Positions 13,160-60,673 of a DNA stretch of 64,000 bases are shown in pieces. The notes under the pieces are model-generated. The model was given only the letters and a program-made list of their open reading frames with translations, was not told the DNA's origin and did no database searches. Positions within the stretch are counted from its first letter, which is position 1. Each line of letters begins with the position of its first letter. Location of the stretch: NCBI GenBank assembly GCA_029053015.1, contig JAIDHX010000014.1:45848-109847 (forward strand), given 5' to 3'. Made by a program: the position numbers and the translations under genes. Origin of the DNA: Lachnospiraceae bacterium. Lineage in GTDB: Bacteria; Bacillota; Clostridia; Lachnospirales; Lachnospiraceae.

Positions 13160-13194
13160 CTTAACATTCTCCTTTCAAGGTTGATAATTGTGAC

Positions 13195-13392
13195 AATTGC
13201 AAAACTTATATTTGCCAGTTTCGAATTGTACAGATTGTATACTTCATAAGCAGACCCTTGCTTACCGTCGGCACTTAGCTGCCGTATTTTGGCAGCTTAC
13301 GTACCGCTACGGTAAGCTCGGAGCGAAAGCGAGTCTGCGTTGAAGTATACAATCTGTACAATGACACTTGCTGCATAACGAGTCTTGCAATC
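13195..13392 (-). repeat. Long-hairpin repeat family, copy 1 (consensus orientation on the minus strand)
   Basis: Termini are AATTGCAAAACT...AGTCTTGCAATC. The outer stem TGTACAGATTGTATACTTCA pairs perfectly with TGAAGTATACAATCTGTACA. The core CTTACCGTAGCGGTAC...GTGCCGACGGTAAG matches the other copies. Confidence 0.9.
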
Positions 13393-13575
13393 ACTTGAAT
13401 TCATTATGTGTTGTGTCTCATAATATAGGAAAACAAGGAAAGCCACAAGCGAAGGTTTTTTGAAAGTGGTAAACCGGCAGTTGAAGAACATCATAAAATT
13501 GTGTAGGAGATAAACCATATCCTTTGTGCCGTATCTTTTGAATTGATTGATAAAATTATCGTTGATTTGTTTTGA

Positions 13576-19758: not shown

Positions 19759-19957
19759 CGTCCCTTCGAAGTTCTGTGTTGTCGTAAGCTTTGTAAATTT
19801 ATTTGACGATATACATCGTACCACATAGTATATTAGGTGTCAACAGTAGATTGACAGGAATTTTTACAAGTGATATAATGCATATTACTAATAGTAACAT
19901 AAACGTCGGGAAGCAAATTAGGAAAATGACAATAAAAGAGTTTCTTTAAGGTTTGGT

Positions 19958-20152
19958 AATTGCGAAGTTTAGAAATGCTGCTGTTGTCATTGTGTACATG
20001 GTATATTCCAACGCAGACACGCTCTCGCTCCAAGCTTACCGTAGCGGTACTAAGCTCGAAAATACCTCGCTAAGTACCGACGGTAAGCAAGGGTCTGCTT
20101 ATGGAATATACCATGTGCACAATTCGAAAGCAGCAGATGTGAGTTTCGCAAC
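19958..20152 (+). repeat. Long-hairpin repeat family, copy 2
   Basis: Termini are AATTGCGAAGTT...GAGTTTCGCAAC. The outer stem is CATGGTATATTCCA / TGGAATATACCATG. The core is CTTACCGTAGCGGTAC...GTACCGACGGTAAG. Confidence 0.9.
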
Positions 20153-20175
20153 TATCCTATGAAAGGCAGCAGGTG

Positions 20176-20308
20176 TTTGCGAAACTTTCTTGCAGTTACA
20201 GGAAATGGGCAATATAGACAAAATGAGGGCGACTTGCCACTGCTTCGGAGGCGTTTTTGTCTATATTGAACATTTCCGTCACTTGCTGAAGATACTTCGC
20301 AATCCCTG
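20176..20308 (+). repeat. Second hairpin element with the same termini but an unrelated interior
   Basis: It begins TTTGCGAAACTTTCT and ends CTTCGCAATCCCTG. The interior carries a perfect 14-bp inverted repeat, CAATATAGACAAAA (20210-20223) / TTTTGTCTATATTG (20255-20268), plus GGAAATG / CATTTCC. Confidence 0.75.
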
Positions 20309-20336
20309 CCTTATCACTGCCGGAAAGGAGAACACA

Positions 20337-26306: not shown

Positions 26307-26393
26307 CTTTAAGTCAGCTCATATTTTTTTACAAAAAAGCTTGCGGCACATGTGTTTTAGGATATTTGGTAAACTATAGATAATTGTGTAGGC

Positions 26394-26588
26394 AATTGCG
26401 AAACTCATATTTGCCGATTTCGAATTGTACACATGGTATATTCCATAAGCAGACCCTTGCTTGCCGTCGGTACTTAGCGAGGTATTTTCGAGCTTAGTAC
26501 CGCTACGGTAAGCTTGGAGCGAGAGCGTGTCTGCGTTGAAATATACCATGCGTACAATGACAACGGTATCGTTTCTGAGTTTCGCAAA
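26394..26588 (-). repeat. Long-hairpin repeat family, copy 3 (minus orientation)
   Basis: The reverse complement is near-identical to copy 2. Termini are AATTGCGAAACTCA...TGAGTTTCGCAAA. It is flanked by CTATAGATAAT at 26374-26384 and 26592-26602. Confidence 0.9.
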
Positions 26589-26725
26589 CGCCTATAGATA
26601 ATCATGGGACGAAAGGAGAGATTTATTTTATGACAACACCCGTTTATTTTGCATAGCGAGGCTATTGCAAATAAGAAAACAGAAAAGAAGTAATAGCCTG
26701 CGCATCGGACTTTTATGAACAGGAG

Positions 26726-46096: not shown

Positions 46097-46325
46097 TGTG
46101 TAGGGGCTGCGAAACTCAGAAACGATACCGTTGTCATTGTACACATAGTATATTCCAACGCAGACTCGCTTTCGCTCCGAGCTTACCGTAGCGGTACGTA
46201 AGCTGCCAAAATACGGCAGCAAGTCATGCCCGGCATGACTTTGGTACCGACGGTAAGCAAAGGTCTGCTTATGGAATATCCTATGTGCACAATTCGAAAC
46301 CGGCAAATAGGAGTTTCACAACTAC
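46097..46325 (+). repeat. Long-hairpin repeat family, copy 4 (with an extra apical hairpin)
   Basis: TGTGTAGGGGCTGCGAAACTCAG...GGAGTTTCACAACTAC. The core carries GCTGCCAAAATACGGCAGC plus the extra hairpin AAGTCATGC-CCG-GCATGACTT. Confidence 0.9.
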
Positions 46326-46342
46326 TTAGTCATATATAAGCA

Positions 46343-46389
46343 TTTGCGAAACTTTCTGTCCCTTGCAGAAACCATTTCGCAATCACCTG
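46343..46389 (+). repeat. Short element carrying only the family termini
   Basis: TTTGCGAAACTTTCTGTCCCTTGCAGAAACCATTTCGCAATCACCTG. Its ends match those of element 20176..20308. Confidence 0.7.
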
Positions 46390-46418
46390 AAAATATACCG
46401 GTGGAAAGGAGCAGCAAC

Positions 46419-47267
46419 ATGACAATAAAGGATGTTGAGGAGCGGACAGGGCTGGCGCGTTCTAATATCCGGTTTTATGAGAAGGAAGGCCTGATAGAAC
46501 CGTCGCGGAATGACAAAAACGGATATAGGGATTATTCTGAAAAGGACGTTGAAACGATTAAAAAAATTGCTTATTTGCGTACCCTGGAAATTTCCATTGA
46601 AGATATCCACTGCATTATGACGGATAAAGTGTCGCTGGCAGAAGTGATAGAAAAGCAGGCTGCAATAATAAAAGAGCAGATTGACGGCTTAAATAAAGCA
46701 AAAGCCATGTGCGAGAGAATGGTGGAGGCCGGAAACCTTAGCTTCGGCGAGTTACAGGTTGAAAAATATGTGGCAGACCTGCCGCATTATTGGAACGATC
46801 ATAAAGCCGTTTTCAAACTGGATTCGGTCGGTTTCCTGCATATATGGGGCAGCCTCATTACATGGATAATTATCACATCTTTATGCCTGATGGCCGGGTT
46901 ATTGTCGTATACAAAATTACCGGATAAAATGCCTGTTCAGTGGAATCATGGAATAGCAGTTTCTTTTATGGACAAAAAAATTATCTTTGCATATCCGCTG
47001 GTCTGTATCATCATCCGTATTTTGTTACGGCCGGTTATCTATGTAAAATTATGCATGCGCCATCCCTACGGAGAGCCCATCACGGAATACCTGACCAACT
47101 ATATGTGCTTTATTGCACTGTCAGTAGAGCTGTTTTCCATACTATTTGTGTTCGGGCTGGTAAAAAGCGTAGTATCCGTTTTGCTTGTAGATACAGTTGT
47201 ACTCATCGGCGTATTGCTAGCTGCCATATCAACCGTCCAACCGTATAAACATAATAACCGCGCATAA
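46419..47267 (+). CDS. MerR family regulator fused to a C-terminal membrane domain
   Basis: MTIKDVEERTGLARSNIRFYEKEGLIEPSRNDKNGYRDYSEKDV, followed by about 4 transmembrane segments. RBS GGAAAGGAG. Confidence 0.85.
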   Translation: MTIKDVEERTGLARSNIRFYEKEGLIEPSRNDKNGYRDYSEKDVETIKKIAYLRTLEISIEDIHCIMTDKVSLAEVIEKQAAIIKEQIDGLNKAKAMCERMVEAGNLSFGELQVEKYVADLPHYWNDHKAVFKLDSVGFLHIWGSLITWIIITSLCLMAGLLSYTKLPDKMPVQWNHGIAVSFMDKKIIFAYPLVCIIIRILLRPVIYVKLCMRHPYGEPITEYLTNYMCFIALSVELFSILFVFGLVKSVVSVLLVDTVVLIGVLLAAISTVQPYKHNNRA

Positions 47268-53803: not shown

Positions 53804-55027
53804 ATGAAAATGGTAGAGGGCGGCGTATGTGCCGCAAAGGGATTTCAGGCTGCCGGCGCGGAAGCCGGTGTCAAATATAAGGACAGGAAGGATATGGCGC
53901 TTGTTTACAGCGAAGTGCCCTGTGTATGTGCAGGCACTTTTACCACCAATGTGGTAAAGGCGGCCCCGGTGCTTTGGGACAGGGAGCTTGTGGAGAACGC
54001 TCCTTTTGTACAGGCAATTGTAGTCAATTCCGGTATTGCCAATGCCTGCACGGGAAAGGAAGGACTTGACTGCTGTAAGGCGGAAGCAAAGGAGGCGGCG
54101 GACAGGCTGCAGATTCCGGAAAACAGTGTATTGCTTGGTTCCACCGGTGTTATCGGTATGCAGATGCCCGTAGACAGGCTGAAAACGGGCATTGCAGAGC
54201 TTGCGGGCAAAAAAGAGCGCTCCGTAAAAGCGGCAGACGACGCGGCAAGGGCGATTATGACGACGGATACCGTGGATAAGCAGATTGCGGTCAGCTTTGA
54301 AGTGGGCGGCAAAACCGTGACCATGGGCGGTATGTGCAAGGGCAGCGGCATGATTCACCCCAATATGTGCACCATGCTTTCCTTTGTGACCTGTGATGCG
54401 GCAATTTCAAAAGAGCTTCTGACAAAGGCGGTAAAAGAAAGTGTGGCCGATACCTTTAATATGATTTCCGTGGACGGAGACACTTCTACCAACGACACCT
54501 TCCTGTTTTTGGCAAACGGTATGGCGGGCAATCCGGAAATCGCGGAGGAAGGCGAGGCATACGAAACCTTTAAGGAGGCTCTGCTCTTTCTCAATACCAC
54601 GCTGGCGAAGAAACTTGTGGGAGACGGCGAAGGCGCGACAGCGCTGGTGGAAGTGCAGGTTGTGGGAGCGGAAAGCAAGGAAGCTGCAAAGCAGCTTGCC
54701 AAATCCGTTATTTGCTCCAGCTTGACGAAAGCGGCAATTTTCGGACATGACGCCAACTGGGGACGTATTCTTTGCGCTCTCGGCTATTCAGGTGCAGCCT
54801 TTGACCCCGAAAAAGTAGAACTGTTTTTCCAGAGCAAATCAGGACGTATCCAAATCTACAAAAATGGCTCTGCTGCGGACTACAGCGAGGAAGAGGCAAC
54901 GAAAATCTTATCCGACGAGGAAGTTACCATTTTGGCGGACATGCACATGGGCGATGCCACGGCAACTGCATGGGGCTGCGATTTAAGCTACGAATATGTC
55001 AAAATCAACGCGGACTATCGCTCGTAG
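53804..55027 (+). CDS. argJ: Bifunctional ornithine acetyltransferase / N-acetylglutamate synthase
   Basis: GFQAAG..AG.K, KGSGMIHPNMCTMLSF (autoprocessing T) and the C-terminal YVKINADYRS are canonical. Confidence 0.95.
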   Translation: MKMVEGGVCAAKGFQAAGAEAGVKYKDRKDMALVYSEVPCVCAGTFTTNVVKAAPVLWDRELVENAPFVQAIVVNSGIANACTGKEGLDCCKAEAKEAADRLQIPENSVLLGSTGVIGMQMPVDRLKTGIAELAGKKERSVKAADDAARAIMTTDTVDKQIAVSFEVGGKTVTMGGMCKGSGMIHPNMCTMLSFVTCDAAISKELLTKAVKESVADTFNMISVDGDTSTNDTFLFLANGMAGNPEIAEEGEAYETFKEALLFLNTTLAKKLVGDGEGATALVEVQVVGAESKEAAKQLAKSVICSSLTKAAIFGHDANWGRILCALGYSGAAFDPEKVELFFQSKSGRIQIYKNGSAADYSEEEATKILSDEEVTILADMHMGDATATAWGCDLSYEYVKINADYRS

Positions 55028-55113
55028 AATGGAGAATCATGTCGAATCAATACAAATGCATTGCAACGGCAATGCATTTGTGCTATATTGGTTTCCGTAG
55101 GAGGTGTATATTT

Positions 55114-55407
55114 ATGGCAAGTACAATTCAAATAAGAGTGGATGATGAATTAAAAATGAAATCTGATAACCTGTTTAGAGATTTGGGAACTGATACAACA
55201 ACAGCAATCAGAATTTTTTTAACACAGGCGATAGCTGCGAATGGATTTCCATTTGAAATAAAAAGAGCACAGGCGAATCCGTACGAGGCAATGCGGGAAG
55301 AGGAAATATTAAACAAACTGGAAAAATCTCGCGAGCATGCAAAGCAGGGGAAATATAGGGATGCCGGGGACGTTATTTCTGATATGAGGGGGAAGTATGG
55401 ATTATAA
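55114..55407 (+). CDS. relB: RelB/DinJ family type II antitoxin
   Basis: MASTIQIRVDDELKMKSDNLFRDLGTDTTTAIRIFLTQAI. RBS TAGGAGGTG. Confidence 0.85.
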   Translation: MASTIQIRVDDELKMKSDNLFRDLGTDTTTAIRIFLTQAIAANGFPFEIKRAQANPYEAMREEEILNKLEKSREHAKQGKYRDAGDVISDMRGKYGL

Positions 55408-55711
55408 GATAGTTCTCACTTCAGATGCAGAAGAGGATTTGGACAGATTTATCAAATATCTGCTTTTGGAGAAGAAAAGTGAACAGGCTGCCAGAAATGT
55501 ATTGGATGACTTTGAGGCTGCAAAAGAGAGCTTATCTCATGCTGCAGGAAGTTTAAAAATTTGTGATAATCCGAAATTGAGAGCATTGGGCTATAGAAGA
55601 ATTAACTTTCTGTCTCATAGATATTTTATGCTGTATCGAATTGTAGATAATATTGTCTTCATTGATAATATATTTCATGAATTACAGGATTATGAAAGCA
55701 GGATGTATTAG
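55397..55711 (+). CDS. relE: RelE/ParE family type II toxin
   Basis: 104 aa. It overlaps the antitoxin gene by 11 nt. It has DLDRFIKYL... and a C-terminal FHELQDY. Confidence 0.75.
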   Translation: MDYKIVLTSDAEEDLDRFIKYLLLEKKSEQAARNVLDDFEAAKESLSHAAGSLKICDNPKLRALGYRRINFLSHRYFMLYRIVDNIVFIDNIFHELQDYESRMY

Positions 55712-55752
55712 TGCAGACTAATTCAATAAATTGGATTTGATGGGGATATATT

Positions 55753-56295
55753 ATGGCAAAAAATGATAATGCACATTCTATTCGCTTGGTTGATAGTTTA
55801 AATAGAAATGCGGGACATGATACCGCGAAAGAATTTGAGGAAAAGTATCCATTGTCCCAAAGTGCAAATATTGAAAAGAAATATGAATGGGCAAAGGATA
55901 CATGCGGTTATCTTGAAGATCATTTTGATGCTGACACCATTATCAGAGTTAGAAAAGATTGTAGATGTAATGATGGAAAATCAATTGCCAACAAGCTTCT
56001 GAAATATTTGAATAAGGCGGATAGCATAGAAGAATTTGTAAACACATTTAACCAGAACGAAACATTTGCTTTTATGGAATATATGTCTGATAACAGAATA
56101 TTATTTTGCTACCCTGAATGTTATTGTGCTTGTGTAAAAAGAGTTCCAAGGGAGTTATCAAAAACGTGGTGTTATTGCACTTTAGGCAATGCAGAAGGCA
56201 TTTTTAGCAAAGTGTTCAGGAAAGACGTAAAGGTCACATTGCATGAAAGCATAAAAACCGGTGCAGATAAGTGTGTGATTGAAGTAGAATGGTAG
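55753..56295 (+). CDS. Cys-rich hypothetical protein (DUF6144-like)
   Basis: 180 aa with CRCNDG, CYPECYCACV and WCYCTLG cysteine clusters. Confidence 0.55.
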   Translation: MAKNDNAHSIRLVDSLNRNAGHDTAKEFEEKYPLSQSANIEKKYEWAKDTCGYLEDHFDADTIIRVRKDCRCNDGKSIANKLLKYLNKADSIEEFVNTFNQNETFAFMEYMSDNRILFCYPECYCACVKRVPRELSKTWCYCTLGNAEGIFSKVFRKDVKVTLHESIKTGADKCVIEVEW

Positions 56296-56365
56296 TTTAA
56301 CGGAACAAAAAATGCCATTTTGTAGTGCGCCGGCTTGTTAAAGTTCAAAGGAGAACAATTGATTG

Positions 56366-57049
56366 ATGGAAAAGGAAAGGATTCCGGATTGGGAAGACAG
56401 CACGGATGAGTACTTTATGATAGACTCCTGCCGGATTCCAAGAAAGGGACTGGATACCGTATATCTGGCATATAAACTCCGAGGAGGAGGTCCTTATGCC
56501 ATTGCAGCGCATATGCATTACTATGAACTGGAGTTTTGTTATGAGGATGGCACCCATTTTTCAGTGGGGCTGTTGCGTTCGGAAGAGAAGGATTTTGAGC
56601 AGTTGATTCGTAGATATGACGATAGCGTCAAAATCTATAGACACCGGAAAATGAAAGAAAATGCCCCATTGCTCTGTCCTTTTAAAAAGCTTAGGGCGGA
56701 GGTACCTTTTGTGAGAAAAGAAACCATGGAGGAATTGACCACATTGTGCAGCGGCAATCCTTTTTGGAGACTGGACGCAAAAAGCAGGAACAAGTATAAT
56801 GGCAATAAGGAAGTGGAATTGACTTTGTGCGGTACTGCACTGACATGGCTGCTTTGGCTGGCGTGGCTTTGTTTGTCAGTTTATTTCTTTTTCTTTGTCC
56901 TTATCCATTTGAAAACAGCCGAACTGCTTATTCCATTAGGATGCGGATTATGCTATTATCTGTTTTTTATCAGAAGCGCCCGGAGGATAACAGAAAAAGC
57001 GAAAGCTATTTTCTACCAGGCCATTTTTAGCGGAAAAATAGAATCATGA
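56366..57049 (+). CDS. Hypothetical protein with C-terminal transmembrane segments
   Basis: ORF with two C-terminal hydrophobic helices. No family recognised. Confidence 0.45.
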   Translation: MEKERIPDWEDSTDEYFMIDSCRIPRKGLDTVYLAYKLRGGGPYAIAAHMHYYELEFCYEDGTHFSVGLLRSEEKDFEQLIRRYDDSVKIYRHRKMKENAPLLCPFKKLRAEVPFVRKETMEELTTLCSGNPFWRLDAKSRNKYNGNKEVELTLCGTALTWLLWLAWLCLSVYFFFFVLIHLKTAELLIPLGCGLCYYLFFIRSARRITEKAKAIFYQAIFSGKIES

Positions 57050-57609
57050 GGGAAGATATTTTAGATTGTTTACAAAAAGAAGTACATCGTAGATGCCAAA
57101 AAGAAACGAACAAATTTGGAATGGGCTGCTACTATCACATTGCTGCAGTAGTGAAAAATGCAGGAATCCTCTCGGAAAAATATGGAGCGGACAGGGAAAT
57201 TGTTATGATTGCTGCCTGGCTGCATGATATTGCTTCCGTTACGGATTATGATTTATATGAGCAGCATCATATACATGGGGCAGAGATGGCATATGGTATT
57301 TTAAAAGAATACAATTATGACAATAAGAAAATTGCGCTGGTACAGGAATGTATAAAAAACCACAGAGGGAGTATAAATCTGGAAAAGAATAGCATTGAAG
57401 AATTGTGTGTGGCAGATGCGGATGCAATTTCTCATTTTGATAGTGTGCCCAGCTTATTGTATTTGGCGTATGTTACAAAGGGAATGGATATCGAGGAGGG
57501 GAAGGAATTTGTGAAAGCCAAATTGATAAGAAGTTTCAAAAAACTATCGGCAGACAGCAAAAAATATTATCAAAGCAAATTTGAAAAAGTGATGGAGGTT
57601 TTGAATTAA
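57046..57609 (+). CDS. HD domain phosphohydrolase
   Basis: HxxxV...LHDIAS...H is the HD motif. It overlaps the upstream stop by 4 nt. Confidence 0.8.
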   Translation: MREDILDCLQKEVHRRCQKETNKFGMGCYYHIAAVVKNAGILSEKYGADREIVMIAAWLHDIASVTDYDLYEQHHIHGAEMAYGILKEYNYDNKKIALVQECIKNHRGSINLEKNSIEELCVADADAISHFDSVPSLLYLAYVTKGMDIEEGKEFVKAKLIRSFKKLSADSKKYYQSKFEKVMEVLN

Positions 57610-57651
57610 TTTCTCTGAAAGAGAGATTCGGTTTTGCGGAGGAGAAACGAG

Positions 57652-58287
57652 ATGAAATATTGGGATACTGTCTGGCACAAAGAGGATATTGAGAATTATA
57701 AACATTATATAAAGGGATATGAAAATGTAAAAAATATAATGGTTCGTGAGTTTCAAAAGTATAACTGTCATGTTGTATGTGATGCGGCTTGTGGTTTTGG
57801 AGCGAACAGCTTAATTTTACAGTCTAATGGATTTGATGTCTGGGGATTTGATATTTCTGAAAGCGCAGTGTGGATTACAAAAGAATTATTGACTCCTTAT
57901 GGAATTCGAAAGGAGCAGTTTAAAACAGCGTCCATATTAAACACGGAATATCCTGATAATTTCTTTGATGCAGTTGCTGTAAGAGCCGCACTGGACCATT
58001 TGTGTGTGAATGAGTTTAACAGGGCGCTGGACGAATTAAAAAGAATAACGAAAGAAAATGGGTTATTGTATGCTTCTTTTGATTCACTTGAACCCGATGA
58101 CACAGAACTTGAACATAGTGTTTTGGAAGATGGAAGTTTTTTATATACTGATGAAAGCAGAGATGGATTATTGTTCCACTATTATTCCGATGAAGATATT
58201 CAAAAAGTGTTTCGAGGTTATGAAATTCTTGGTATGGAAACAGATGGGCGCGGTAATCGGCATTTGGTTGTGAAATCAAATTCGTAA
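57652..58287 (+). CDS. Class I SAM-dependent methyltransferase
   Basis: Motif [24 protein letters not shown] before the ATG at 57652. Confidence 0.8.
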
Positions 58288-58319: not shown

Positions 58320-59219
58320 ATGCAGGATAAAAACATGGACACCGTATTGCAGAAGGCAGAGGTTCTCATTGAGGCGCTGCCCTACATACAGCGATTCAAC
58401 AGGAAAATTATTGTGGTAAAGTACGGCGGAAGCGCCATGAGCAACGAAGACTTAAAAAGGAACGTCATAAAGGACGTGACCCTCTTAAAGCTGGTAGGCT
58501 TCAAGCCAATCATCGTGCACGGCGGCGGCAAGGACATCAGCCGCTGGGTTGGCAAGGTGGGCAAAGAGGCGCAGTTTGTAAACGGACTGCGTGTGACCGA
58601 TGAGGAAACCATGGAAATTGCGGAGATGGTGCTTGGCAGAGTCAACAAGCATCTGGTGTCCATGGTGCAGGAGCTGGGCGTAAAGGCAGTCGGCATCAGC
58701 GGCAAGGACGGCGGGCTTTTGCAGGTGGAAAAGAAATATGCGGACGGGCAGGACATTGGCTATGTGGGTGAAGTGAAAAAAGTGGAGCCGAAGGTGCTCT
58801 ATGATCTTCTGGAAAAAGATTTCCTTCCCATTGTGGCGCCCATCGGACTGGACGAAAATTTCCAGACCTACAACATTAACGCGGACGACGCGGCCTGTGC
58901 CATAGCCAAGGCGGTGGGGGCGGAAAAACTGGCGTTCTTAACGGACATTGAAGGGCTGTACAAGGATATCAACGACAAGTCCAGCTTTATATCGAGACTG
59001 ACGGCGACGCAGGCGGACGAGCTGATAGCGGGCGGCTTTATCGGCGGCGGCATGCTGCCCAAGCTGGGCAACTGTACCTCGGCAATCAAGAACGGGGTCA
59101 ATCGGGTGCATATACTGGACGGCAGAATCCCGCACTGCCTGCTGCTTGAAATTTTCACAAACAAAGGTATCGGCACTGCCATTATTGCAGACGAGGACAG
59201 CCACATGCTGATGGATTGA
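58320..59219 (+). CDS. argB: Acetylglutamate kinase
   Basis: [15 protein letters not shown] and NINADDAA motifs. RBS AGGAGG. Confidence 0.95.
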
Positions 59220-59446
59220 GAGGCAATTGCGGAACGCGGTGATTATGCCGTTGTCATTGTGTATCTTGTACATTCCAACGCAGACGCGCTTTCGCTTCGA
59301 GCCAGCCGTAGCGGTACGTAAGCTGCCAAAATACGGCGCAAGTCATGCGGGCATGACTTTGGTGCCGACGGCTGGTAAGGGTCTGCTTATGGAATATACA
59401 AGATACACAATTCGGATTTGGCAAAAAGGAGTTTTGCAATTACCTG
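59217..59446 (+). repeat. Long-hairpin repeat family, copy 5 (argB-argD intergenic)
   Basis: TGAGAGGCAATTGCGG...GGAGTTTTGCAATTACCTG. The outer stem is ATTGTGTATCTTGTA / TACAAGATACACAAT. The core stem is changed to CCAGCC...GGCTGG. It is flanked by TGATGGAT at 59209-59216 and 59447-59454. Confidence 0.9.
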
Positions 59447-59476
59447 TGATGGATAAAGTTAGAAAGGGAATAAATT

Positions 59477-60673
59477 ATGATGAAGGAATATATTGAGGAA
59501 GCGGAAAAAGCGCTGCTCCACACCTACAACCGTTATCAGATTGTGCTGGATAAGGGCGAGGGCGTTTATCTTTATGATATAGAAGGAAAAAAATATCTTG
59601 ATTTTGTGGCAGGTATTGCCGTATTTGCGCTGGGGTATCATAATCAGGCGTACAATGATGCCTTAAAAGCGCAGATTGATAAGCTGATTCACACTTCTAA
59701 CTACTTTTATAATGTGCCTGCTGTGGAAGCCGCAAAGCGGTTAAAAGCGGTATCGGGCATGGACAGGGTGTTTTTTACCAACTCCGGAGCGGAGGCGGTG
59801 GAGGGCGCAATCAAAGCAGCAAGAAAATATGCGTGGCTGAAGGACGGCTCCACCGACCATGAAATCATAGCGATGGAACATTCTTTCCACGGCAGAACCA
59901 TGGGTGCGCTTTCCGTGACCGGCAATCCCCATTACAGGGAGGCGTTCGAGCCCGGCATCGGCAATATCCGTTTTGCACAGCTCAATCAGATAGAGAGCGT
60001 CAGGGAATGTGTCAATGAGAAAACCTGCGCCATCATACTGGAAACTGTGCAGGGAGAGGGCGGTATCTACCCGGCGGAGGAGTCTTTCTTAAAAGAGCTG
60101 CGCGCTCTCTGTGATGAAAAAGATATTCTGTTGATTTTAGACGAGATTCAGTGCGGTATGGGACGCACCGGTTATATGTTTGCATGGCAGAAATACGGTG
60201 TAAAGCCCGATATTATGACAACGGCGAAGGCGTTAGGCTGCGGCGTGCCGGTGGGAGCGTTTCTGATGACGGAGAAAGTTGGCGCGGCATCCCTTGCGGC
60301 GGGCGACCACGGCACCACTTACGGAGGTAACCCGCTTGTCTGCGCGGCGGTCAACAAAGTGCTTGATTTATTTGAGGAGAATCATATAATAGAAAATGTG
60401 GGCAGTGTGGCGCCCTATCTGGAAGAGCGCCTGGATGTCCTTTGTGAAAAATATGACTTTGTAGAGACGAGAAGAGGCGCGGGACTTTTGCAGGGGCTTG
60501 TATTTTCAAGACCTGTCTCGCCGATTATCAAAAGGGCAATGGATAAGGGGCTGATTCTGATTAATGCGGGAACGAATATTATCCGTTTTGTGCCGCCCCT
60601 TATTATCACCAAAGAAAATGTGGACGAGATGATAGAGATTCTCGATAAATGTCTTTCGGAGGAGCCTGATTAA
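59477..60673 (+). CDS. argD: Acetylornithine aminotransferase
   Basis: Class III aminotransferase motifs (FTNSGAEAVEGAIK, LDEIQCGMGRTG, TTAKALG). Confidence 0.95.
   Translation: MMKEYIEEAEKALLHTYNRYQIVLDKGEGVYLYDIEGKKYLDFVAGIAVFALGYHNQAYNDALKAQIDKLIHTSNYFYNVPAVEAAKRLKAVSGMDRVFFTNSGAEAVEGAIKAARKYAWLKDGSTDHEIIAMEHSFHGRTMGALSVTGNPHYREAFEPGIGNIRFAQLNQIESVRECVNEKTCAIILETVQGEGGIYPAEESFLKELRALCDEKDILLILDEIQCGMGRTGYMFAWQKYGVKPDIMTTAKALGCGVPVGAFLMTEKVGAASLAAGDHGTTYGGNPLVCAAVNKVLDLFEENHIIENVGSVAPYLEERLDVLCEKYDFVETRRGAGLLQGLVFSRPVSPIIKRAMDKGLILINAGTNIIRFVPPLIITKENVDEMIEILDKCLSEEPD

Follow-up and report, generated by a model that had tools for sequence, protein, structure and literature searches.

What is the large hairpin that separates the arginine-synthesis genes argB and argD in a Lachnospiraceae bacterium, and did it give argB its stop codon? 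The window analyzed here is the whole stretch of 64,000 nt taken from contig JAIDHX010000014.1, and all coordinates below are window positions. It carries argB at 58320-59219 on the + strand, an open reading frame (ORF) of 299 aa that ends L-M-D-TGA and encodes an acetylglutamate kinase (Pfam AA_kinase, E = 3.9e-45; its homologues carry that name). After a spacer of 257 nt follows argD at 59477-60673 on the + strand, placed by its ORF and Pfam domain (Aminotran_3) among acetylornithine aminotransferase-type genes (398 aa). A first-pass annotation, made from the sequence alone, had proposed that a mobile element inserted here recently, duplicated 8 bp of its target and supplied the argB TGA (59217-59219) with its own first three bases. 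We find that the spacer is very probably occupied by an old copy of a small non-coding MITE (miniature transposable element with inverted repeats) with the ends of an IS1182-like, 1.77-kb insertion sequence (IS) of gut Lachnospiraceae.

Anatomy of the argB-argD spacer

The element, copy 5 of an A-type MITE that recurs in the window, covers 227 bp at 59220-59446 (+ strand), forms a long irregular hairpin and, aligned with 41 other copies, matches the family profile at E = 1.9e-53. It opens with the terminal inverted repeat GAGGCAATTGCGGAAC (59220-59235, +; TAGGYRATTGCGAAAC in the family consensus and CAGGCAATTGCGGAAC in the orthologous copies of relatives) and closes with GTTTTGCAATTACCTG (59431-59446, +). 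Between these, the 5' side of a core stem, CCAGCCG (59302-59308, +), pairs with CGGCTGG (59369-59375, +), and an optional 20-nt palindromic hairpin, AAGTCATGCGGGCATGACTT (59340-59359, +), is shared with copy 4 of the window and with the copy at locus L022 and is absent from the orthologous copies at L105-L112. Folding of 59200-59470 yields -106.7 kcal/mol (z = -5.55, 200 shuffles) and copy 5 alone yields -101.9 kcal/mol, which bears out the very stable hairpin described at first pass; it should be co-transcribed. The ORFs that overlap copy 5 are chance ORFs only.

The octamer TGATGGAT stands on both sides, at 59209-59216 and 59447-59454, and occurs elsewhere in the 64 kb once, at 1459. Under the 11-bp rule of the family, described below, the left copy of the target duplication is TGATGGATTGA (59209-59219, +), which holds the last argB codons and the TGA, and the right copy is TGATGGATAAA (59447-59457, +), identical to the left at nine of 11 positions. 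The insertion spared the argD leader (59458-59476, +), whose ribosome-binding site (RBS), GAAAGGG at 59463-59469, lies 17 nt downstream of copy 5.

A dispersed family with an 11-bp target duplication

One genome per species was scanned with an exact 18-base core pattern, which returned more than 100 loci, nearly all in Lachnospiraceae or Acetatifactor metagenome-assembled genomes (MAGs) and frequently many per genome; as retrieval was by an exact pattern, the conservation of CAACGCAGACnCGCTyTCGCT is partly built in. A total of 92 non-overlapping copies were confirmed with nhmmer. Copies are 199-232 bp long, differ by indels of 18-21 nt and of other lengths that are not multiples of three, and have no coding capacity. 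The family ends TAGGYRATTGCGAAAC...GTTTCGCAATYRCCTA, with terminal repeats of about 16-18 nt, are present in 46 of 66 aligned copies. Two other candidate explanations of the repeats, a coding small ORF and a chance repeat, were rejected.

Direct repeats of at least 8 bp flank 15 of 46 copies, compared with about 1% of mismatched pairs of left and right flanks. Five copies (L094, L009, L013, L043 and L103) have perfect 11-mers at the exact junctions, several more agree at nine or ten of 11 positions, and junction matches of at least 8/11 are found in 9/46 copies versus 14/2070 control pairs. The match of copy 5, 9/11, is one that 4 of the 2070 mismatched flank pairs reach. The target duplication rule of the family is 11 bp, directly next to the TAGG/CCTA ends, in MITEs and full-length ISs alike. 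The flanking repeat seen at first pass is therefore a real target duplication, but one of 11 bp and not of 8, as judged by MITE copies and full-length ISs.

The earlier model, in which TGATGGAT is the entire duplication and the element starts with TGA and so supplies the argB stop, can point to flanks that are identical over exactly 8 bp, with two of the next three bases different. It is contradicted by the clean duplications of MITEs and full-length ISs, which measure 10-11 bp, and by the family alignment, in which no copy has a conserved TGA ahead of the TAGG end.

Neither plasmid nor phage collections gave a match to the element (blastn), and Rfam 15 gave no match in the window at gathering thresholds. 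Three sub-regions searched against Rfam at E up to 5-10 returned only noise or generic hairpins, the miRNA-precursor-like matches among them reflecting the long hairpin. In the literature on MITEs with Lachnospiraceae, Blautia or IS1182, our search turned up no account of the family.

An IS1182-like partner shares the ends of the MITE

An end-sequence scan of viral and prophage contigs recovered ISs of 1.77 kb with the same ends as the MITE (L248, L255, L262, L274, L278, L288 and L291-L300). No long end pairs of this kind were present among the retrieved genome loci; it was the viral-contig scan alone that led to the IS. End pairs of 987 bp in viral loci were rejected as chance matches within phage genes. 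In each full-length IS there is one ORF of 490-507 aa (P0154 being a transposase of 490 aa), and the transposase it encodes matches DUF772 (E = 1.1e-12) and DDE_Tnp_1_6 (E = 0.0019)/PF01609. In its length, its single ORF, its N-terminal DUF772 and its C-terminal DDE domain, the partner is like the IS1182 family, whose NCBIfam model (NF033551) is also its best; unlike that family, it reaches 78 bits against a curated cutoff of 270. It would thus be either a distant relative of IS1182 or a separate group in the IS5/IS1182 assemblage. Homologues of the transposase are very abundant in Blautia and other Lachnospiraceae.

The ISs are flanked by the duplications GGTATTAACTA and (A)ACAAGGATAG and by one 10-of-11 repeat, with ATGCTATTTCC in a Blautia chromosome, giving 10-11 bp overall. 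MITE and IS share only their ends, the A-type interior being unrelated to that of the IS. We assign the A-type as a MITE of the IS1182-like IS because the two have the same ends and 10-11-bp duplications and share nothing but those ends; and because the full-length IS lacks the A-type interior, that interior is not needed for transposition. As far as sequence can tell, the A-type has each of the features by which a MITE is recognized: inverted repeats, a duplication of constant length, an autonomous partner, a small non-coding body and presence/absence polymorphism. The transposase, acting in trans, would have cut the target at the end of argB with an 11-nt stagger, and pasting in the element would have duplicated TGATGGAT and three more bases.

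Filled and empty sites in close relatives

Among ArgB homologues of a single 90% cluster, two types of allele can be told apart. In filled alleles, namely the window, P0121 (21 contigs, including two NCBI MAGs) and P0131, ArgB ends ...DEDSHMLMD and the element sits at the same position in all; the orthologous filled sites are L105-L116, and GCA_014804465.1 and GCA_014804555.1 are examples of assemblies from filled strains. In empty alleles (L001 and L117-L119), ArgB ends ...DEDSHMLAEDEQHF (P0126; ...HMLAEDEQHF) or ...SHALAEEEQHF (P0001), and argD follows 19-25 nt on with no element. Relatives with the same junction and no element confirm that a mobile element inserted between argB and argD, as had been proposed. 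The first-pass annotation had suggested related genomes as the place to look for an empty site; such sites exist, but L105-L116 carry the element too and the empty alleles end ArgB differently.

Over argB and argD, the window, a filled sister and an empty sister are pairwise about 96.5% identical. The insertion is polymorphic among these close relatives, yet it is old, because it is also present in a lineage that is about 3.4% diverged in argB and argD and because the orthologous elements are 92.8% identical, with an 18-nt indel; the claim of a recent insertion does not stand. Insertion would have preceded the split of the window lineage from this sister lineage. Since then, the copy would have acquired substitutions, an altered 20-nt internal hairpin and the two differences between the duplication copies.

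At L105-L112, the ends of the orthologous element are perfect, CAGGCAATTGCG...CGCAATTGCCTG, and start right after the TGA. The two sequences pair with each other, and the window has GAGG where the orthologues have CAGG, pairing with ...CCTG. The inverted repeat therefore begins at 59220, after the TGA, which is not the first three bases of the element; this also speaks against the 8-bp model.

The P0121 copies are without the palindromic hairpin of window 59340-59359, and the P0131 contigs contain a third variant, with a left arm like that of copy 1 and a shortened end. Three variants of the element were thus observed at one argB-argD site (window 59340-59359, L105:2401-2609 and L115:1355-1442). 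The site may have been hit more than once, or dispersed copies may have exchanged sequence by gene conversion.

Origin of the argB stop codon

The argB TGA forms positions 9-11 of the left duplication copy, outside the inverted repeat, and would not come from the element. Two histories could account for it, which we consider equally probable, each a little short of an even chance. In scenario (i), the target was TGATGGATTGA: the TGA would be native, the element would have inserted exactly after the gene, and the right copy would have drifted to AAA. In its favor, 16 of 35 long ORFs that run up to an element from upstream have their stop within the 11 nt next to it. With stops within the duplicated 11 nt this common in the family, scenario (i) would be unremarkable.

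In scenario (ii), the target was TGATGGATAAA and ArgB formerly ended two codons later. Once the element was in place, the reading frame would continue for 34 codons inside it, and a change from AAA to TAA and then to TGA would restore a stop, the first step being selected and the second neutral; the window would later have lost the old TAG by a 1-nt deletion. In favor of this history, it is the stop triplet that holds both differences between the duplication copies, and the former TAG can still be seen in frame. The right flank of the sister lineage reads, in frame, GAT AAA GTT TAG, and it is with this TAG that the empty alleles' own stop (TTT TAG) lines up.

The 8-bp model, or scenario (iii), is improbable. 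Every sampled allele ending ...HMLMD does carry the element, as this model would have it, but the virtual empty site of the sister lineage ends ArgB two codons on, with no long read-through. An empty allele reading ...CTGATGGAT and then AAAGTT, without the third triplet, would together with 8-bp duplications in the family lead back to this model, and one reading TGATGGATTGAGTT would count against it. One long pattern by which such an allele could be recognized in the species cluster is GACAGCCACATGCTGATGGATNNNGTTTAGAAAGG, with GTT or GTTT allowed. A metagenome scan with ACATGCTGATGGATNNNGTT, whose 17 specified bases are too unspecific, returned 120 loci that were chance matches, none in argB context, and exact look-up of the hypothetical pre-insertion proteins ...MLMDKV and ...MLMDKVRKGINYDEGIY found neither in the protein collection. 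For ArgB and ArgD of the window itself, exact look-up gave no recorded gene positions.

The ArgB C-terminus may have been remodelled, since filled alleles end ...HMLMD and empty ones ...HMLAEDEQHF. Any loss would amount to about two residues, and no tail of 13-17 codons is removed in scenarios (i) to (iii). Deletion of the element with one 8-bp repeat does extend ArgB, as had been calculated, but by 13 codons (KVRKGINYDEGIY, then a stop) and not by about 17. Of the 35 long incoming ORFs, five others have the repeat's terminal TAG as their stop, and nine end within the element. Family members are often found on gene ends and in some cases do supply the stop. ORFs ending near the element were noted at L022, L030, L031, L037, L049, L090, L094, L096 and others.

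Expected effect on the argB-argD message

Copy 5 shares its strand with argB and argD, and a scan of 58900-59700 showed neither a terminator-like nor a promoter-like signal in or beside the element; it is therefore probably co-transcribed with the two genes. The sense bias of the family in operon spacers, described below, is further indirect evidence. Within this message it would fold into a self-contained rod of about -102 kcal/mol. The predicted accessibility of the argD RBS and start codon is 0.59 with copy 5 and 0.57 without it, so the element should have little effect on argD translation. Judged by these predictions, we expect the insertion to leave arginine synthesis nearly untouched, the hairpin at most altering how the mRNA is processed or decays. 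By analogy with the Correia, ERIC and bcr1 elements described below, an effect on processing or stability at the hairpin is possible.

A position in an operon spacer and a high stability would also suit a resident arg attenuator or terminator that never inserted. We regard this as practically untenable: the same sequence stands at four unrelated loci of the window and in dozens of unrelated settings beyond it, the argB-argD junction of close relatives is free of it, and the hairpin has no terminator-like match and no Rfam family. The sequence directly 3' of it, GTGATGGATAAAG, contains no U-tract and so lacks what defines an intrinsic terminator. The attenuator or terminator was rejected on the empty sites and the dispersed copies.

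Covariation and orientation of the A-type interior

The A-type interior is folded with unusual consistency. RNAalifold applied to 42 copies predicts 45 pairs, with 95% of stem cells paired. Changes on both sides are found at 27 of the 45 pairs (188 cells), a result that none of 500 shuffles reaches by any measure; in a control with slid partners, the numbers do not exceed 14 pairs and 37 cells. The structure is not a simple palindrome, as it combines a conserved asymmetric bulge, CGCTYTCGC, and loops with a three-way center and optional hairpins. The compensatory change in the core stem, first noted for copy 5, is real: CCAGCCG/CGGCTGG replaces the CTTACCG/CGGTAAG of the other four window copies, three adjacent pairs being changed on both sides, and in the family alignment these pairs (columns 90-92 with 193, 219 and 220) alternate between AU, UA, GC and CG from one subfamily to another. 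It is not peculiar to copy 5, however, but a subfamily trait, and CCAGCC/GGCTGG also occurs at L007, L044 and L105-L112.

Orientation is biased as well. Between co-directional neighbors in the genome loci, 32 copies are sense and 14 antisense, and where both gaps are at most 60 nt the numbers are 17 and 3, both counts resting on crude ORF calls. In the window, all five copies lie between genes, each in sense orientation relative to the gene downstream. Many copies resemble copy 5 in following a stop codon by a few nt and preceding the next start by 20-40 nt. This placement may reflect a target preference or, equally, a filter: tight operons tolerate insertion only in the few nt between a stop and the next ribosome-binding site.

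These features raise an alternative, in which the A-type interior would be a strand-specific RNA module that is under selection and is carried by the IS ends, for instance an intercistronic processing or stabilizing hairpin or an RNase III site, with which copy 5 would tune the ratio of argB to argD expression instead of being neutral. The covariation, the asymmetric and conserved bulge and loops, the excess of sense copies (overall, in tight spacers and in the window) and the absence of the A-type interior from the full-length IS all argue for it. Set against them, exact retrieval with the 18-base core builds in part of the conservation, and the orientation count depends on crude gene calls. 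G-U and A-C mismatches number 57 and 40 (p = 0.10), which is no significant strand preference. Internal-deletion derivatives of the A-type that have lost the central three-way junction exist (L053:3152-3295, L060:6231-6339 and L047:4995-5062), and hairpin-templated DNA repair could also produce the same compensatory changes. We hold such a module to be unlikely, while giving it a real share of the probability. A slightly smaller share goes to the broader proposal that the A-type is a mobile regulatory RNA on IS1182-like ends, spread across Lachnospiraceae genomes and kept mainly in sense orientation just past operon stops for intercistronic processing, stability or insulation; the B-type described below would then be a second cargo on the same ends.

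Several points weigh against our preferred reading of copy 5 as an old MITE of the IS1182-like IS. Its duplication matches at only nine of 11 positions. Around the site, filled and empty alleles diverge along a stretch of about 40 nt, which makes the exact pre-insertion sequence a reconstruction, and no empty allele carrying TGATGGAT was found among the sampled relatives. The transposase scores under the IS1182 cutoff and is best called IS1182-like, and its action on the MITE in trans is deduced from anatomy. Strong covariation of the interior and a sense-strand bias, finally, are not expected of a purely neutral passenger.

Other copies in the window and neighboring genes

A profile search finds exactly five A-type copies in the window. 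Copy 1 (13190-13397, - strand) lies 36 nt upstream of an HTH_3/methyltransferase gene, copy 2 (19953-20158, +) upstream of a PadR-family gene, and copy 4 (46097-46328, +) upstream of a MerR-family gene. In copy 4 the left end is degenerate and the optional hairpin is present. Copy 3 (26389-26594, -) is flanked by ATGATTATCTA and (C)ACAATTATCTA, a decayed duplication. In order, the genes downstream of the five copies are HTH_3/methyltransferase, PadR, an unknown 104-aa ORF, MerR and argD. Three of the five copies stand in the leaders of transcription-factor genes in sense orientation (13160-13397, HTH_3/methyltransferase; 19953-20330, PadR; 46097-46420, MerR).

Two further elements accompany these copies. 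A B-type MITE of 141 bp, with the same termini and another interior, follows copy 2 after 11 nt (20170-20310, +), and a mini element of 53 bp, essentially both inverted repeats, follows copy 4 after 8 nt (46337-46389, +). The B-type (about 141 bp, core ...GGAAATGGGCAATATAGACAAAATAAGGGCGACTTGCC...) is also found at L007, L017, L022, L038, L044, L051, L072, L085 and L096. It stands repeatedly 11-16 nt beyond an A copy, the spacer differing from case to case, which suggests that insertions are drawn to resident ends. Other short elements have the same ends and yet another interior, among them a 188-bp type in phage contigs.

Copies were also seen in MAGs labelled as other phyla, namely Gastranaerophilales (L004, L015, L020, L032, L036, L042, L043, L054 and L056), Muribaculum (L013 and L075) and Bacteroides (L040); one 'Gastranaerophilales' bin contains about ten. 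These are either bin contamination or cross-phylum transfer.

Upstream of argB, argJ (53804-55027) lies about 3.3 kb away in a loose arg cluster. The stretch 53804-58287, including 55397-55711, contains the same-strand accessory genes for a ParE toxin, DUF6144, an HD-domain protein and a methyltransferase. Strains differ in what this stretch contains, DUF4160 and DUF2442 genes being present at L105 and the methyltransferase missing at L117.

Relation to known elements

Bacterial MITEs derived from IS families have been reviewed (Delihas, 2011; PMC3184786, which also pictures nemis) and surveyed (PMC11602168). Like these, the A-type is small and non-coding, shares inverted repeats and the length of its duplication with an IS, and is dispersed between genes and polymorphic among strains. 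It differs in its IS1182-like partner from Lachnospiraceae, in the 11-bp duplication, in an interior that is unrelated to the IS, conserved and structured, and in the at least three interior types (A, B and mini) that occur on the same ends.

For the bcr1 repeats found in the Bacillus cereus group (Klevan et al., 2007), the review's account gives 5-bp direct repeats and a cruciform of two stem-loops, names no transposase partner and reports that transcription has been shown (PMC3184786). As summarized there, bcr1 resembles the A-type in its occurrence in Firmicutes, its length of about 150-200 bp, its direct-repeat flanks, its strain-variable sites and the compensatory changes that preserve its fold (PMC3184786). 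Unlike that of bcr1, the transcription of the A-type element is deduced.

No sequence similarity links the A-type element to Correia or ERIC elements. Correia elements (nemis, in Neisseria) and ERIC/IRU (in enterobacteria) are co-transcribed inverted repeats that often lie between genes of one operon, and they form long RNA hairpins that are possible RNase III substrates altering mRNA stability. Correia elements make TA duplications and contain promoter and IHF sites, and ERIC is not known to have a transposase. Rickettsia palindromic elements and enterobacterial intragenic MITEs are mobile palindromes in gene ends that can change a C-terminus or give a stop. The five family copies that end the upstream ORF at their terminal TAG and the nine that do so internally are like the Rickettsia elements; copy 5 is unlike them, its stop lying in the duplicated target and the element itself outside the reading frame. 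The nearest described analogues of the A-type are bcr1, Correia and ERIC, none of which is related to it in sequence.

Significance

The element is of an ordinary kind, but the family appears to be undescribed and unusually well folded. It now has a definition that can be used in annotating gut Clostridia, comprising its ends, an 11-bp duplication, a partner transposase and three types of cargo. This matters in practice because the repeat breaks assemblies, sits within operons and can be mistaken for a regulatory RNA. At this locus, the odd C-terminus of ArgB and the 257-nt spacer would be the scar of an old transposition and not a device of arginine regulation. Covariation, sense bias and landing within 11 nt of stops might still reflect a role at the RNA level, which we think improbable though well worth bearing in mind. 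If it were true, the family would offer a tractable case of a transposon-borne RNA structure that shapes operon expression in the gut microbiota, for which both filled and empty strains exist.

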